The notes under the pieces were generated by a model. It saw only the letters and a program-made list of their open reading frames with translations. It had not been told where the DNA came from and searched no databases. Both the position numbers and the translations under genes were made by a program. From the UHGV virus genome UHGV-0120697: 28,017 bases of DNA; one strand, given 5' to 3'. Origin of the DNA: a virus. Each line of letters begins with the position of its first letter. The first letter of the stretch is position 1. Of this stretch, positions 5,001 through 12,449 are shown in pieces.

Positions 5001-5204
5001 ATGAACAACAAGACATGGTTTCGTGCATATGCATGGGCGCTGGTATGCGTCCTCGTCTCTCTCATTCTGTATGTAGGGGTACTCCCCCGAATGATTTCAT
5101 CAGACAGCTCCTTCCTGGTATTGTTGGGCATTTTCATTGCCATGCTGTACCCGGCAGGCGTTGTTCGCCTTTTCAGTAAGTACATCAAGGAAATTAAACA
5201 ATGA
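5001..5204 (+). CDS. Small membrane protein, two predicted TM helices (67 aa)
   Basis: Internal ATG at 5001 with an AAGGG RBS after the previous stop; two hydrophobic segments; ATGA-coupled to the downstream SPFH gene. Confidence 0.5.
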   Translation: MNNKTWFRAYAWALVCVLVSLILYVGVLPRMISSDSSFLVLLGIFIAMLYPAGVVRLFSKYIKEIKQ

Positions 5205-6031
5205 AGAAATTCAGACTCTTTCAGATTCTCCCGCTTTTTGCCGCCATCCTGCTGGTTGGCTGCGATCGCGTTGAGCCAGGTAATATGGGCATCAAAGTCA
5301 ACAAGCTGGGCGACGACAAAGGCGTTGGCGAAGTGGTTGGCGTTGGTCGCTACTGGACTGGCTGGAATACCGAGGTTTACATCTTCCCGACCTTCAAACA
5401 AATGAAGACCTACGATGAGCCGTTCAGCTTTCAGATGAGTGACGGCACAACCATCGGCTATCACATCGGCGTGGCCTACAAAGTTGATCCATCCAAAGTT
5501 ACCACGGTGTTTCAGACCTACCGCAAAGGCGTGGACGACATTACCGACACTGACCTGCGCCAGAAGATCGCCGATGCACTCAACCGACTGGCCAGCAAAA
5601 TGACCACCGATAAGTTTATCGACGGTGGTAAGTCTGAACTGCTGGATTCAGCACTTAAAGATATTCAGGAAGAGATGACCCCCATCGGTATTCAGGTCAT
5701 GAGCCTCTCTTATGTCGGTAAACCGGAATATCCGCCAACCGTTATCGACAGCATTAACGCCAAAGTCACGGCAAACCAGAAAACCCTGCAACGTGAACAG
5801 GAAGTCAAGCAACGCGAAGCTGAAGCCAACATGCTGCGCGCAGAAGCTGCCGGACAAGCCGATGCCATTCGCACAAAAGCCCAGGCTGAAGCCGACGCCA
5901 TTCGTTTACGCGGCGAAGCTCTGCGCCAGAATCCCGGCGTTATGGAGCTGGAAGCGATTAACAAATGGAACGGCACGCTACCGCAATACATGACCAGTAA
6001 CACCGCTGTTCCGTTTGTTCCGGTGAAGTAA
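5201..6031 (+). CDS. SPFH/band-7 (HflK/C-, prohibitin-like) domain lipoprotein
   Basis: Signal peptide with lipobox LLVGC; SPFH-like core followed by an Ala/Glu/Gln/Arg-rich coiled coil (EAEANMLRAEAAGQADAIRTKAQAEADAIRLRGEA) and a WNGTLP tail typical of band-7 proteins. Confidence 0.7.
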   Translation: MKKFRLFQILPLFAAILLVGCDRVEPGNMGIKVNKLGDDKGVGEVVGVGRYWTGWNTEVYIFPTFKQMKTYDEPFSFQMSDGTTIGYHIGVAYKVDPSKVTTVFQTYRKGVDDITDTDLRQKIADALNRLASKMTTDKFIDGGKSELLDSALKDIQEEMTPIGIQVMSLSYVGKPEYPPTVIDSINAKVTANQKTLQREQEVKQREAEANMLRAEAAGQADAIRTKAQAEADAIRLRGEALRQNPGVMELEAINKWNGTLPQYMTSNTAVPFVPVK

Positions 6032-7073: not shown

Positions 7074-9896
7074 ATGACGGCAGAGTACATCAGGGACTGG
7101 CAACAACCGCGCCACGCAGTAGGACGTGAAGGAACGGAGATCCCCGCACCTGAATCCGCACTTTCCTCCTGGCTGGATGCCTACCGGGCAGAGAACGAAC
7201 GCCGCCAGGAAATGGCTGATGCGGCGTTCTCCGCCACACCGCTGGGCAACCTGATTAATAAAAGCCTGGACGCACAGGAAAAACAGGACAAAACCATCAC
7301 ACTGGCAGGAGACGCCAGAAAACGGGCACGCGGCGCGGTGGATGAAGCCATGGCCTCGCTGCGCCTGCTGCCGTCCTATCTGCGCGATCCGCTTATTCGC
7401 CACCTCTCCTTCCTGCGCAAAAAACAGGAAGCCGATCGCCGGAAAGGCAAAAAGAGCTGGCAGGCGGAACGCTATGCACGCGGAACCCTGCGCAAAATAT
7501 TCGAACGTCTGGATCGCACTGACAGACGCTGGCTGACACCGGGTTATCGCTCCCTTGCCGGACGCGAACGCCTGGACGATTTGCTTTACCTGCCGCAGCT
7601 CAACAAACACCAGATACAGACGCTGGCCACCATGACGGCGGCGATGTTCAGCAGCACCTTCGAAAAACTCTGCGATGGCTTTGGCGCGACTGATGGCGAA
7701 CTGACCATGGATGTAACGCTGAAGGCGTATCAGATGCTGGCCCGCATGGCGTTACACCTGCACGCCATGCCTCCACATTATGACGCACTGACAACAGACA
7801 AAGACCGGAGGAACGAACCGGACACGGAGCTGCTGCCGGGCGCAATCCTCCGCCTGACCTGTGCGGAATGGTGGAAACGCAAACTGTGGCTGTTACGTTG
7901 CGAGTGGAGAGAAGAACAACTCCGCGCCGCCTGTCTGGTTTCCAGAAAAACATCGCCCTATCTGAGCCAGGACGCGTTAAGCGAGTTTCGCGCACAGCGC
8001 GAGAAAACACGCGATTTCCTGAAAAGTTTCATGCTGGAAAATGAAGACGGGTTCACGATTGATCTCGAGACGGTGTATTACGCGGGAGTAAGTAACCCGG
8101 TTCACCGTAAGGCAGAAATGATGGCCACCATGAAGGGACTGGAACTTCTGGCCGAAGCCCGTAGCGACAGAGCGGTGTTTCTGACCGTCACCTGCCCGTC
8201 AAAATACCACGCAACAACGGAGAACGGTCATCCGAACCCCAAATGGAACGGGGCCACCATGCGCGACTCCAGCGATTACCTGGTTAACACGTTTTTTGCG
8301 GCAGTCCGCAAAAAACTGAACCGCGACGGCCTGCGCTGGTATGGCATCCGCACGGTGGAGCCTCACCATGACGGCACCGTGCACTGGCATATGATGGTCT
8401 TTGCTCATCCGGAAGAAATCGACAGCATCGTGGCCATCACCCGCGATATTGCCATTCAGGAAGATCGTCACGAACTGGGCGATGATATTACTCCGCGCTT
8501 TAAGGCGGAGTATGTCGACGGCTCAAAAGGCACACCAACCAGCTATATCGCGACCTACATCGGAAAAAACCTGGACAGCCGCGCCGTAGATGGCATCGAC
8601 CCGAAAACGGGCAAGCCACGCGTTGACCACGAAACCGGAAAATCAATGGCCGAGAGCGTGGAGCGCGCCATTGGCTGGGCGCGTCTTCATCGGGTCCGCC
8701 AGTTCCAGTTCTTTGGCATCCCCTCCCGTCAGGTATGGCGTGAACTCCGCCGCCTTGCCAGCCAGATGGCACGCAACCCGGAAGGCCCGCAACGGCTGAA
8801 GGATGATGCAATGGATGCGGTACTCGCTGCCGCTGATGCCGGGTGTTTTGCCTCCTACATTGAAAAACAGGGTGGCGTGCTTGTTCCACGCAAGGACTAC
8901 CTGATTCGCACCGCCTACGACCTCGCAGATGAGCTGAACGATTACGGCGAACAGAGCGTACAGATTTACGGGATCTGGTCACCACTCATCGGGGAATCCT
9001 CCCGTGTGTGCACGCATCCGGATAACTGGAAGTTGGTAAGACGTAAACCAGAACCAGAAGACAACGCCCGCGAAAATGGTTTTGACCTTCAGGGCGGCCA
9101 TGCCGCCCCTTGGACTCGTGGCAATAACTGTCCCCGTGTACAGGAAACGGACAACAACGGGACAGAACAGCCGGAAGAACGGCCAGCACCGTGGCCGCAG
9201 CTTCCTGACGGCGTTGACGTGAACGAATGGATGCGCTCACTGAAACGGCACGAACGCCGGGCGCTGATGCGTTCGCTTCGTGACAAACAGGCAAAAAACA
9301 GCAGTGATGAAATGCAGAGCTGGACACAGAGCCGCAAACAGCAGCGGCCTTTGCCTGATAACCACGAATTACTCGCTAAAGAATGGCGGGAATCTGCCGA
9401 ATCTCTCGGCCTGCATATCGGTGAACAGCAGATGCAGCACCTGTTACGGGGCGGCAGTCTGTACGTTGACGGCAGCATCATTGCACCGCAGGGATTTGAA
9501 ATTGTACGCAAACCGGATACCCGACCGGACAGCCGGATCACGCAGCTCTGGCAGCGCCTGAGCCGTAACCACGGCGTAAGCAGTACGGAGATCCGCCATA
9601 ACCCGGTCGCCAGCTATCTGGAACAGCTGAGGGCATCAGACCCCGAAGCCGCCGCACGCCTGGCATCCACACTTCAGCAAGACCAGAACACCATGAAAAC
9701 ACCCGTTACCGTGCTTTCTGACATGCTGCGCGCCATCCGCGACGCAGAGCACGCACAGAGAATCAGTGAAACCACTGAACGCGCCCGCCGCAAAGCAGAC
9801 CTGCTGCGGGGTGGCCTGACCAGTGGAAACAAAAAACAGACAGAAACGGGATTCACAAATCCCGTAAATGAGCAAAAAACGCGCCGCGATATATGA
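7074..9896 (+). CDS. A: Rolling-circle replication initiator, gpA family (HUH endonuclease)
   Basis: HUH motif (TVHWHMMVFAH) and paired active-site tyrosines (TSYIATYIGKN); position after the early operon as in P2. 940 aa, longer than P2 gpA (about 760 aa), with a C-terminal extension. Confidence 0.9.
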   Translation: MTAEYIRDWQQPRHAVGREGTEIPAPESALSSWLDAYRAENERRQEMADAAFSATPLGNLINKSLDAQEKQDKTITLAGDARKRARGAVDEAMASLRLLPSYLRDPLIRHLSFLRKKQEADRRKGKKSWQAERYARGTLRKIFERLDRTDRRWLTPGYRSLAGRERLDDLLYLPQLNKHQIQTLATMTAAMFSSTFEKLCDGFGATDGELTMDVTLKAYQMLARMALHLHAMPPHYDALTTDKDRRNEPDTELLPGAILRLTCAEWWKRKLWLLRCEWREEQLRAACLVSRKTSPYLSQDALSEFRAQREKTRDFLKSFMLENEDGFTIDLETVYYAGVSNPVHRKAEMMATMKGLELLAEARSDRAVFLTVTCPSKYHATTENGHPNPKWNGATMRDSSDYLVNTFFAAVRKKLNRDGLRWYGIRTVEPHHDGTVHWHMMVFAHPEEIDSIVAITRDIAIQEDRHELGDDITPRFKAEYVDGSKGTPTSYIATYIGKNLDSRAVDGIDPKTGKPRVDHETGKSMAESVERAIGWARLHRVRQFQFFGIPSRQVWRELRRLASQMARNPEGPQRLKDDAMDAVLAAADAGCFASYIEKQGGVLVPRKDYLIRTAYDLADELNDYGEQSVQIYGIWSPLIGESSRVCTHPDNWKLVRRKPEPEDNARENGFDLQGGHAAPWTRGNNCPRVQETDNNGTEQPEERPAPWPQLPDGVDVNEWMRSLKRHERRALMRSLRDKQAKNSSDEMQSWTQSRKQQRPLPDNHELLAKEWRESAESLGLHIGEQQMQHLLRGGSLYVDGSIIAPQGFEIVRKPDTRPDSRITQLWQRLSRNHGVSSTEIRHNPVASYLEQLRASDPEAAARLASTLQQDQNTMKTPVTVLSDMLRAIRDAEHAQRISETTERARRKADLLRGGLTSGNKKQTETGFTNPVNEQKTRRDI
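9846..9865. promoter_or_regulatory. 20-bp palindrome ACGGGATT-CACA-AATCCCGT (copy 1, inside the 3' end of A)
   Basis: Perfect 8-bp inverted arms; an identical-arm copy lies 73 bp downstream. Confidence 0.5.
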
Positions 9897-9918
9897 AGCG
9901 CGCATAAAACAGGCAAAA

Positions 9919-9938
9919 ACGGGATTTCAGAATCCCGT
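9919..9938. promoter_or_regulatory. 20-bp palindrome ACGGGATT-TCAG-AATCCCGT (copy 2, 35 bp upstream of the parM-like start)
   Basis: Same arms as copy 1; both copies preceded by AAAACAG and followed by AAA(T/C)GA; positioned as an operator or centromere-like site. Confidence 0.5.
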
Positions 9939-9972
9939 AAACGATTAATTAATCAACATAAGGAAAAGCGAC

Positions 9973-10932
9973 ATGAAAATTTGTATCGATGACGGCTCCA
10001 CCAACATCAAGCTGGCATGGACTGAGAACGGCGAACGCCGCAACGCCATCAGCCCGAACAGCTTCAAGTCGGAATGGTCTGCGCCGTTCGGTGGCACGCA
10101 GCCCGCGAACTACATGCTTGATGGCGTGCGCTATGGTTTTGATCCGGTCAGCGATCGCTTTGTCCAGACGACTGACACGCAATACCAGTACAGCGATGTG
10201 AATGTCATTGCCATTCATCACGCGCTGGTCAAATCAGGCATCACGCCACAGGAGGTGGATGTGGTTGTCACCCTGCCACTGAGCGAGTATTTCGACACAA
10301 ACGCACAGCCGGACATAGCCAACATCAACCGCAAAAAAGCGAACGTTATGCGCCCGGTGGAGTACCAGAACGGCGAAGCATTCACTATCCGTAACGTACG
10401 GGTTATGCCTGAATCCATTCCGGCTGGCTTTAAGGCACTGGCTGACATGAGTCCGTTTGAATCCCTGCTGATTGTGGATTTAGGCGGAACCACGCTGGAT
10501 GTGGCAAAGGTTCAGGGACAACTGGCAGGTATCAGCCAGGTGTTTTGCGATCCACACGTAGGCGTTTCCCTGATGGCCGATGCCGTACTGTCGGTGATGG
10601 CCACTAACGGTATGCGTACCAGTCACCACATCGCCAATACCATTATCGAACATCGCCATGATGAAGCCTGGCTGCGCCAGCACATCCACAATGACGCGCA
10701 TTACGCCAGCCTGATGGCGGTTATTCGTGAAAAGGAAGAAACACTGAAACAACGCGTGATCCGCGCGCTGGCGGGTTTTTCGGGTTACGGGCGGGTGATG
10801 GTTGTCGGTGGCGGGGCAGAGATTGTGGCACCCGCTATCCGCGAAGCCTGCGGAGTTAATGCGACTTTCATCGCGGACGGGGTGCCACAGTTTGCTCTGG
10901 TTAATGGGCTGTACGCAATGGGCAAGGAGTAA
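9973..10932 (+). CDS. parM: Actin-like segregation ATPase, ParM/StbA family
   Basis: Actin-fold motifs: phosphate-1 (IDDGSTNIKLAW), phosphate-2 (VDLGGTTLD), adenosine (VVGGGAEIVAP). N-terminus closely resembles plasmid R1 ParM as recalled from memory (not searched). Confidence 0.7.
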   Translation: MKICIDDGSTNIKLAWTENGERRNAISPNSFKSEWSAPFGGTQPANYMLDGVRYGFDPVSDRFVQTTDTQYQYSDVNVIAIHHALVKSGITPQEVDVVVTLPLSEYFDTNAQPDIANINRKKANVMRPVEYQNGEAFTIRNVRVMPESIPAGFKALADMSPFESLLIVDLGGTTLDVAKVQGQLAGISQVFCDPHVGVSLMADAVLSVMATNGMRTSHHIANTIIEHRHDEAWLRQHIHNDAHYASLMAVIREKEETLKQRVIRALAGFSGYGRVMVVGGGAEIVAPAIREACGVNATFIADGVPQFALVNGLYAMGKE

Positions 10933-10936
10933 ACCA

Positions 10937-11248
10937 ATGACGACACCAACCAGACGGATAAGTTTCTATCTGAAGCCCGCCGCCGTCAAGAACGAAGGCG
11001 AAGCATGCGCCTGGCTGGACAGCCTTACACCAGAAGCCCGCAAAAGTGGTCAACGCGTGGCTTTTCTGGCCGGGCTGGCACTACTGAAAATGAATCCGGC
11101 AGAGGCTTACCGACTGGCTGCATGGGCTGATGATGAGGCGTTATCAATGACACAAACCAGGACAGAACGCCCCGCGTCACAGCCAGTATCAGCCGCACAG
11201 ATAACCAGTCAGATGGCCGGAAATATCCGGGCGTTATTTCCCGAATAA
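10937..11248 (+). CDS. parR: ParR-like small DNA-binding adaptor (ribbon-helix-helix type)
   Basis: Directly downstream of the ParM-like gene with an AAGGAG RBS; N-terminal RRISFYLKP...LDSLTPEAR...AFLAGLALLKMNP and C-terminal NIRALFPE resemble R1 ParR as recalled from memory. Confidence 0.55.
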   Translation: MTTPTRRISFYLKPAAVKNEGEACAWLDSLTPEARKSGQRVAFLAGLALLKMNPAEAYRLAAWADDEALSMTQTRTERPASQPVSAAQITSQMAGNIRALFPE

Positions 11249-11253
11249 CACAA

Positions 11254-11277
11254 CATCAGGGCGCATCCGCCCTGATG
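11254..11277 (+). other. Perfect 10-bp-stem hairpin (CATCAGGGCG-CATC-CGCCCTGATG) between the parR-like gene and the next operon
   Basis: Read directly; no U-tract, so a processing, stability or protein-binding role is as likely as termination. Confidence 0.45.
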
Positions 11278-11311
11278 ACTTTAACCCGGGAGCATAAACA
11301 AGGGGGACACA

Positions 11312-11644
11312 ATGCAACACATTGACAGAGAAAAAGCGCAGCGACTGATTGAGCGGATGGAAGCGCTGGCGAAAGAAGAAAATGTCAACATCCAAAAAAT
11401 AGCTGAATGTGGCCAGATAGTTCTTCGTCGTGAAAAAGACCTCAAACAACTGATGTCTGGCGAAACCAGCAAAACATGGACTTCAGGCGAGAAGACGGTT
11501 TATTGCAGCTTCTGCAATAAATCCCAGTACGAAGTCACAAAGGTGATTGCCGGACCGTCTGTTTACATCTGCAATGAGTGCGTGGATTTGTGCAATGAAA
11601 TTATCAGGAAAGAAGTGACAGACAAAAAGGAAAAAAACGCATGA
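11312..11644 (+). CDS. Small protein with a ClpX-type C4 zinc-binding domain (host ClpX N-domain mimic)
   Basis: C-terminal [38 protein letters not shown] has the C-x2-C-x18-C-x2-C spacing and is near-identical to the E. coli ClpX N-terminal zinc-binding domain as recalled from memory. No AAA+ module follows. Confidence 0.6.
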
Positions 11645-11955
11645 ACAGAAAACAGAAACAAGAGTTGAAATACTTCTTACGTAAAGAAATTGCCAGGCTT
11701 GAAGATGCAGAGTCACAATCATCAGAAATTCCGTTCGGAATGGATATCAACGACGCCCGTATGCTCCAGGCATACCGCATAGCTCAGGCTGCACTACAGG
11801 CAAAACCGTCAGATGGACTGGTTAGAGCAGTACATTTCTATGAACAGGTAAAGCGTGAGAATCCGCCAGTCGAAACCGGAGCATGGAAAGACGCTGTTGA
11901 CTGGGTGCTCAAAGAGGCTTGCCAGTCTGTAAACATTGGCATCAAAGGAGAGTGA
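11641..11955 (+). CDS. Hypothetical protein (operon gene 2)
   Basis: ATGA-coupled to the upstream gene; ends ...IGIKGE with the stop inside a 17-bp repeat. Confidence 0.5.
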
Positions 11956-11957
11956 GA

Positions 11958-12449
11958 ATGCAAATTTCACCGGTTACTCTTCGTGTTGCGAAGGCGTTTA
12001 TATCCAGACATCACCGACACAATAAACCCCCGGTGGGGCATAAATTCAGCATTGGTCTGAGAAATGATGCCGGAGAATTGATAGGTGTGGCGACAGCCGG
12101 TAGACCTGTTGCACGACATTTGGACGATGGATTAACGCTTGAAGTAAATCGCACATGTACCACAGGAGAACGCAACGCTAACAGCGCGCTTTATGGTGCT
12201 GTCTGGCGGGCAGCAAAGGCTATGGGTTATCAACGTTGTATTACGTACACCCAGGCAGATGAATCAGGAGCATCTCTCCGCGCAGCTGGTTTTGTTCGTG
12301 TGAAAGAGCTTCCTCCAAGAAAAAGCTGGGCGGAATCAAGCGTCGCCCTGCGGAGTAAACGCGATCCGGTCGGAAACGGTGGTGTTCCTCGTGTGCTCTG
12401 GGAAATCAGGAGAATGAGTACCACTGGCATTCGCATCAAAGGAGAGTGA
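11958..12449 (+). CDS. Hypothetical protein (operon gene 3), basic/His-rich N-terminus; possible acyltransferase-like fold
   Basis: ATG 2 nt after the upstream stop; ends ...GIRIKGE with the stop inside the second copy of the 17-bp repeat. Fold assignment is a weak impression only. Confidence 0.45.
   Translation: MQISPVTLRVAKAFISRHHRHNKPPVGHKFSIGLRNDAGELIGVATAGRPVARHLDDGLTLEVNRTCTTGERNANSALYGAVWRAAKAMGYQRCITYTQADESGASLRAAGFVRVKELPPRKSWAESSVALRSKRDPVGNGGVPRVLWEIRRMSTTGIRIKGE

Follow-up and report, generated by a model that had tools for sequence, protein, structure and literature searches.

Twin phased palindromes upstream of parM-parR in P88-like P2-family prophages as a probable split parC

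Introduction

ParR proteins bind parC, which in all characterised cases is located directly upstream of parM (PMC9426499; PMC5016525). We analysed the UHGV virus genome UHGV-0120697, a P88-like (Xuanwuvirus, P2-family) prophage of 28,017 bp; this whole stretch is referred to as the window. Two 20-bp palindromes with identical arms precede a parM-parR gene pair in the window. On comparison of sequences, we regard it as probable that these twin palindromes are the cis site (parC, centromere and operator) of a type II ParM/ParR cassette in P88-like P2-family prophages.

In plasmid R1, one ParR dimer binds each 11-bp iteron of parC, and two iteron blocks flank a 39-bp promoter core in a U-shaped complex (PMC2241845). 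The R1 site (Dam and Gerdes 1994; Hoischen 2008, PMC2241845) resembles that of the window in several respects. Both are located directly upstream of parM-parR, and in both, two ParR-binding blocks (putative in the window) flank a short core in curved, A-rich DNA. Both ParR proteins are ribbon-helix-helix (RHH) proteins with a C-terminal ParM-binding tail. The two ParM proteins are 47% identical, and an R1-like IncF relative has its blocks 72 bp apart. However, R1 parC comprises 2 × 5 direct 11-bp iterons in 159 bp, whereas the window has 2 × one 20-bp inverted repeat in 93 bp. In addition, R1 ParR is only about 25-28% identical to the window ParR and differs in its DNA-facing residues; the R1 core contains a promoter, whereas none is evident in the window core; and the R1 replicon is a plasmid, whereas that of the window is an integrating P2-like phage.

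The minimal centromere of pB171 par1, as cited in PMC9426499 (Ringgaard 2007), consists of two 10-bp repeats upstream of parM, and the pB171 ParR structure (PDB 2JD3) is matched by the family profile of the window ParR. The pB171 repeats are reported there as direct, whereas those of the window are inverted. According to the review in PMC5016525 (Schumacher 2007), pSK41 parC has a 20-bp unit site and its RHH ParR forms a symmetric dimer-of-dimers. Because the pSK41 segrosome is made of symmetric dimer pairs in that account, a 20-bp dyad would fit as a ParR unit site. pSK41 differs from the window in its contiguous tandem 20-bp repeats and Gram-positive host, and its ParM and ParR are without detectable sequence similarity to ours.

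Partition systems are also found on elements that integrate. The srpMRC locus of the integrative and conjugative element (ICE) SXT/R391 (Carraro 2015, PMC4489591) is, like the window, a type II cassette on a normally chromosome-integrated element. Upstream of srpM, a centromere-like region holds 13-bp repeats in direct and inverted orientation, and stable binding requires paired sites (PMC4489591). It differs in that SrpR has no homology to known ParR, the repeats number four, and the element is an ICE, not a phage. The AlpA/AlpC/alpS system of the Corynebacterium prophage CGP3 (PMC5539076) shares with the window a prophage-encoded actin-like filament. Its adaptor binds repeats in its own promoter region, and the system acts on excised, replicating phage DNA (PMC5539076). 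However, the CGP3 proteins are unrelated, alpS consists of the short repeated TTAAnnG, and the host is actinobacterial. By analogy, CGP3 AlpACS and SXT/R391 srpMRC may be taken as functional precedents for partition on integrated elements.

Results

The palindrome ACGGGATT-N4-AATCCCGT was matched exactly at only two places in the 28-kb window: 9846-9865 (copy 1, ACGGGATTCACAAATCCCGT, arms separated by CACA) and 9919-9938 (copy 2, ACGGGATTTCAGAATCCCGT, arms separated by TCAG). The start-to-start distance was 73 bp. These values agree with a sequence-only reading of the window, which had described two 20-bp palindromes with identical 8-bp arms, 73 bp from centre to centre, in similar A-rich context. 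That context was recovered as a 42-nt direct repeat, in which an A-rich left flank precedes each dyad; repeat unit 1 of the putative parC (9830-9871) and repeat unit 2 (9903-9944) are 81% identical. A search of the rest of the prophage, as the same reading had proposed, yielded no further copy in the 28,017 bp with 3 mismatches tolerated (shuffle mean 0.12). The 8-mer arm ACGGGATT occurred 6 times in the window against 0.85 expected, a number reached in 0/100 shuffles.

As had been noted, copy 1 (core GGG-N10-CCC) falls within the final codons of gpA. The gpA gene (7074-9896, plus strand, stop codon TGA at 9894-9896) is a 940-aa open reading frame (ORF) encoding the replication endonuclease (Pfam Phage_GPA, 9e-130). 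The 53-bp segment between the dyads (9866-9918) contains the gpA stop codon; its length is conserved and its sequence poorly so. Between the end of copy 2 and the parM ATG are 34 nt, and the 20-bp dyads start at -127 and -54 relative to that ATG. That is, the order in the window is gpA, the dyad region, parM and parR, and a repeated cis site is present directly upstream of parM, as in a type II locus. Every gene between 3.9 and 12.7 kb is on the plus strand.

The parM gene (9973-10932, plus strand) encodes an actin-like segregation ATPase of 319 aa with full-length matches to Pfam StbA_N (3.6e-82) and the ParM C-terminal domain (1.3e-68). Its Shine-Dalgarno (SD) sequence, read from the sequence as AAGGA at 9960-9964 on the plus strand, is conserved in the alignment. 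The protein is 47-52% identical to the ParMs of IncF, IncL/M, IncI and IncK plasmids. Directly downstream, parR (10937-11248, plus strand; true start ATG 10937) encodes a small RHH centromere-binding adaptor of 103 aa (Pfam PF10784, 6e-24) with a C-terminal tail. The ParR family profile matched pB171 ParR (PDB 2JD3) with an E value of 0.0018 over residues 9-75; a single-sequence phmmer search of ParR against the PDB gave no match, and 2JD3 was reached by the family profile only.

Alignment of 17 ParR homologues showed a mosaic middle between two fully or nearly invariant ends, RRISFYLKP at the N-terminus and an NI..LFP tail at the C-terminus. RRISFYLKP occupies the position of the ribbon strand of the RHH fold. 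The residues R6, F10, P14, R35, R40, G46 and N96 are common to the window ParR and the R1-like, IncL and IncI ParRs. An AlphaFold2 model of the ParR monomer (mean pLDDT 57.7, N-terminal strand unformed) was too poor for a fold search and was not used; this quality is as expected for an obligate dimer. Compared with a Hafnia relative (L129, below), dN/dS was 0.04 for parM and 0.21 for parR. Judged by these sequence features, parM and parR form a genuine type II partition pair. The mosaicism of ParR was also seen in the P88-like phages ON470623.1, ON470599.1 and PV468777.1, in which some ParRs are only 52% identical despite about 98% identity in upstream DNA and ParM. The breakpoint is near window position 10991 (residue ~18); the middle of the protein is swapped, and the tail at the C-terminus and the DNA-binding strand remain.

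ParM homologues of intermediate distance were fetched with their flanks (L129, L213, L215, L216, L218, L219 and L220). Except for the Pantoea locus L219, all of them are in P2-like prophages downstream of gpA, either directly (L129, L215, L216, L220) or with one or two ORFs between (L213, L218). Four lineages, including the window, carried exactly two GGG-N10-CCC dyads within the 250 bp upstream of parM. The dyads are at -125/-52 from the parM ATG in the window (spacing 73 bp) and at -124/-51 in Hafnia L129 (73 bp; ParM 95% and ParR 75% identical to the window). They are at -128/-55 in a second Hafnia locus, L213 (73 bp; ParM 62%, ParR 39%), and at -131/-59 in Plesiomonas L215 (72 bp; ParM 63%, ParR 37%). 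The dyad homologous to copy 1 thus lies at -124 to -131 and that homologous to copy 2 at -51 to -59 in these three relatives. A comparable dyad pair was found in 0/20,000 shuffles.

In L213 and L215, the sequence between the dyads is otherwise unalignable to the window. L129 differs from the window with a dS of 0.64, yet 24/24 core bases are identical, compared with 79% identity for the whole non-coding stretch. The sequence-only reading had staked its proposal in part on conservation of the motif in related prophages, and the number, position and 72-73 bp spacing of the sites were kept in all four lineages. Because a conserved pair of triplets is placed in dyad symmetry on one helical face, the pattern points to a protein site, not to RNA or a cruciform.

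The ParR N-terminus TRR(I/V)SFYL(K/N)P is common to all four dyad lineages. In Serratia L216 and Enterobacter L218, the ParR reads NRKISFYLKP, and the upstream DNA contains long inverted repeats and other GC dyads. The IncI1/B/O, IncL/M, IncK and IncF plasmids and the Pantoea replicon have split arrays of 10-11-bp direct iterons, with iteron blocks 72-73 bp apart in the IncF and IncL plasmids; the plasmid ParR N-termini are RKCSFYIYP, RRTIAFKLNP and RRKILFYINP. In this handful of lineages, the type of site appears to follow the DNA-binding strand of ParR.

The L216 and L218 loci hold a sister parMR cassette, in which inverted repeats of about 14-20 nt surround a central GC dyad (L216 2370-2480, L218 1880-1990). 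A second dyad, GCCGTTTAAACGGC in Serratia, is present in this cassette, and the left end of the upstream layout (CAGGCAAAAACGGGAAC) is still similar to the window flank. In the Serratia cassette, parR is followed by HicAB.

Two loci with unrelated surroundings defined the extent of the mobile unit. The IMG/VR contig L048 is homologous to window 9831-11645 (97.7% identity); its upstream DNA is unrelated and encodes a gpA of 773 aa that differs from that of the window, as well as an additional ORF of 159 aa. L068 is homologous to window 9829-11249, up to the parR stop, at 95.7% identity, and its upstream ORFs are unrelated. The left homology boundary in both coincides with the start of repeat unit 1. 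Since homology starts at 9829/9831 next to unrelated upstream DNA, the dyads, parM and parR move as one unit.

The proposal that copy 1 could couple expression of the cassette to gpA read-through gained no support. In L048, copy 1 falls between genes; in L129, the spacer of the copy 1 dyad contains the gpA stop codon; and the gpA tail is not conserved among relatives. The overlap of copy 1 with the gpA 3' end therefore looks incidental, and the last ~22 gpA codons of the window are, by this comparison, merely cassette DNA that is read through. A further locus, L022, was rejected as an independent single-dyad context; its IS66 insertion deleted window 9362-9911. This IS66-family element (L022 560-3270) lies a short way 5' of dyad 2, and both dyad 1 and the gpA 3' end have been lost. 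At the right cassette edge defined by L068, directly after the parR stop, a 10-bp GC-rich hairpin (CATCAGGGCG...CGCCCTGATG) is found at 11254-11277; it was scored as terminator-like on the minus strand by the consensus scan.

The dyad form is typical of many helix-turn-helix (HTH) regulators and unlike known ParR sites, which would suit binding by a different dimeric protein, for example a host factor or a phage regulator of the Cox, C repressor or Ogr type. However, the dyads travel with parM-parR into the phage with a different gpA (L048) and into the unrelated context of L068. Their distance is fixed relative to the parM ATG, not to gpA; they change together with the ParR N-terminus, and the motif occurs nowhere else in the window. 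We consider a binder other than ParR very unlikely.

Close relatives were collected in two ways. A pattern scan of IMG/VR returned 120 loci, 115 of which represent this locus; the other five (L042, L053, L113, L117 and L120) were rejected as unrelated sequences, some of them ordinary terminators. The within-clade conservation profile of this set was uninformative, as the loci are 95-99% identical and were picked by exact motif match (biased). The biased set was replaced by the distant lineages described above and by a second, independent set ascertained by ParM protein, with 78 usable loci. A GTDB genome scan with the ParR alignment gave 3 loci only; its peptide patterns were narrow. The 78 ParM-ascertained loci all had two cores; these were 73 bp apart in 75 loci, and the remainder had a spacing of 74 bp (2 loci) or 72 bp (1 locus). 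The frequent variants of the arms each had one transition, at position 1, 7 or 18. Variation was also found in the N4 spacer (CACA, CACG, TCAG, TAAA) and in the sequence of the segment between the dyads.

Each window palindrome can fold as a hairpin with an 8-bp stem and a 4-nt loop (about -10 to -11 kcal/mol, z -3.6 to -4.2). The palindromes may then be read as plus-strand mRNA hairpins that stabilise the 3' end of the gpA message or control the processing or translation of parM. In keeping with this, close relatives vary the loop/spacer and keep the stems, and the common copy 2 variants A1>G and C18>T would retain G-U pairs. However, the common copy 1 variant T7>C breaks a plus-strand pair, no compensatory double change in the arms was found among ~190 loci, and the dyad region had no Rfam match at E <= 1. 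In the distant relatives L213 and L215, position and spacing are kept, but only 3-4 pairs around a 10-nt loop remain, and stability collapses to -2.7 to -4.9 kcal/mol (plus strand) and -3.9 to -5.6 kcal/mol (minus strand). The plus-strand stems are followed by AAA and no U-run, unlike an intrinsic terminator. That is, neither covariation nor a stem maintained in relatives marks a structured RNA here, and we judge a role as an mRNA hairpin to be improbable. Long-range RNA pairing between the palindromes was dropped as evidence because it is automatic for two identical palindromes.

A hairpin of about -10 kcal/mol is possible on both strands at each palindrome, and the consensus scan scored both sites on the minus strand, where the 8-bp stem is followed by TTTTTGCCTG or TTCTGTCTGT. 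Intrinsic terminators of antisense transcription that shield gene A would have this form. However, the genes between 3.9 and 12.7 kb are all plus-strand, and the stronger hairpin at 11254-11277 stands between the nearest minus-strand genes and the dyads. In addition, the copy 2 variant A1>G (~32/78 loci) leaves the minus-strand stem with an A-C mismatch at its base, and the hairpins are not conserved in relatives. An antisense terminator is extremely unlikely on this evidence.

The cassette (window 9826-11250) was present in 1307/5426 complete RefSeq E. coli genomes, about a quarter, including O157:H7, O104:H4 and 55989. It occupied 1455 places, 1453 chromosomal and 2 on plasmids, with up to 3 copies in some genomes. 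Escherichia phage PhiR44_2 is 100% identical to the window over 9400-11400, and P88 and relatives are 95-98% identical. One 34.5-kb circular E. coli 'plasmid' record (NZ_CP148288.1, 1-34461) is a complete P88-like phage genome that holds integrase, cox, gpA, parMR and structural genes; it represents either an episomal state or the assembled excised form. Another record (NZ_JBQPOM010000071.1), labelled 'Vagococcus sp.' (a Firmicute), contains the enterobacterial prophage region at ~95% nucleotide identity; the label is probably due to assembly contamination or mislabelling.

Next to copy 2, the conserved ATTAATTAATCAA (9944-9956, plus strand) is a candidate -10 of a parM promoter, below the threshold of the promoter scan. 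Within it, ATTAATCAA (9948-9956) is common to the window, L213 and L215; L129 keeps the first ATTAAT only, followed by AAAGCAA. ATTAATCAA was the only conserved promoter-like element found, and with this -10, dyad 2 would cover the -35 position. The sequence-only reading had copy 2 overlap the likely promoter of the cassette, for which the sequence offers only this candidate downstream of copy 2. TATATG at 9890-9895 was rejected as a promoter element between the dyads; it is not conserved in Salmonella or L068. The consensus scan found no plus-strand terminator between gpA and parM; therefore, read-through from the early operon into parM is likely, as far as the sequence indicates.

These findings also suit a purely transcriptional operator, at which ParR, or a ParR/ParM pair repurposed by the phage, autoregulates or gates early (gpA) operon read-through without segregation. 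Dyad 2 is located just 5' of the conserved ATTAATCAA and the SD region, read-through from gpA is likely, and in R1, ParR serves as repressor as well as centromere binder (PMC2241845). Moreover, with the prophage chromosomal in 1453/1455 places, a lysogen offers no obvious centromere cargo. Against this, ParM is under strong purifying selection (dN/dS 0.04), and the ParM-binding tail of ParR is conserved, indicating that a linkage of filament, adaptor and DNA has been kept beyond repression. That two sites have kept their phasing at 72-73 bp likewise suits a higher-order complex. We regard operator function alone as unlikely.

Other features of the window lie outside the cassette or at its edge. 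The early operon includes a gene for an SPFH/Band 7 protein (5201-6031; Pfam 1.3e-30). The gene directly after parR (11312-11644) encodes a small protein with a ClpX-type C4 zinc finger (6.8e-18), and 11919-12449 gave a weak Mom-like match (8.6e-5), under the Pfam cut-off. The segment 8342-8390 is the sole gpA DNA still alignable to the diverged L048 gpA (82% over 49 nt). P2-type phages have their replication origin/nick site inside gene A. The segment could be this site, or else the coding region of a catalytic motif.

Discussion

The twin palindromes are best explained as a minimal split parC, putatively bound by ParR. The sequence-only reading had proposed an operator or centromere-like arrangement. 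The part of it that holds up is a site with helical phasing for the downstream ParR-like protein, which is favoured by co-mobility with parM-parR, by conserved position, number and 72-73 bp spacing, and by replacement of the site where the ParR strand differs; the coupling to gpA read-through is the part that we set aside.

By analogy with R1, pB171 and pSK41, we infer ParR binding, stoichiometry, looping, repression and segregation activity as follows. Each 20-bp dyad would bind a symmetric pair of ParR RHH dimers, with one dimer per GGGA(T) half-site and half-site centres 13 bp apart. The dyads, being 73 bp or about 7 helical turns apart, would present these complexes on the same helix face. 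The A-tract-rich 53-bp spacer may bend or loop between them, giving a small U-shaped segrosome, in which the conserved ParR C-terminal tails (NIRALFPE) would capture the ends of ParM filaments. Since dyad 2 would cover the -35 position of the one -10-like element that is conserved, the ParR-dyad complex probably acts as a repressor of parMR as well; autoregulation of parMR is plausible by the same analogy.

Several points weigh against a split parC. Every characterised ParR binds direct repeats (PMC9426499), and a dyad site would be unprecedented for the family; the window has two inverted repeats in place of a direct-repeat array. The inverted layout sets the architecture apart but leaves the locus type unchanged. 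Two sites are also far fewer than the ten iterons of R1. The 8-bp arms are perfect in only about half of the 78 close relatives, and no more than a handful of lineages connect the type of site with the ParR N-terminus. No sigma-70 site with at least 9/12 matches was found in 9300-11500, which makes the operator role uncertain. With integration into the chromosome at 1453/1455 E. coli places, a segregation cargo is not obvious, and literature searches on a par locus of P88, Xuanwuvirus or P2-like phages found no publication.

A broader proposal can be made only tentatively, and we think it less likely to be right than wrong. P2-family prophages of Enterobacterales may carry their own ParMRC sub-lineage, in which a phased pair of dyads is read head-to-head by an RHH ParR, a recognition mode undescribed for ParR. 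Such a system might serve the phage genome rather than a plasmid, positioning or separating its copies after excision and during replication by gpA in the manner of AlpAC in CGP3, or might allow an occasional plasmid-like carrier state.

The type II ParMRC locus is a known locus type; what is new here is the use of inverted repeats rather than direct arrays and the presence of only two sites. If ParR binds the dyads, the binding modes of type II centromeres would be extended to inverted half-sites and to only two phased sites. It would also provide a very small, defined parC (93 bp) for structural and synthetic-biology work. If the cassette is only an autoregulated remnant, the finding would amount to ordinary annotation. 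The locus raises the question of why an integrating phage retains a plasmid segregation machine under strong purifying selection.

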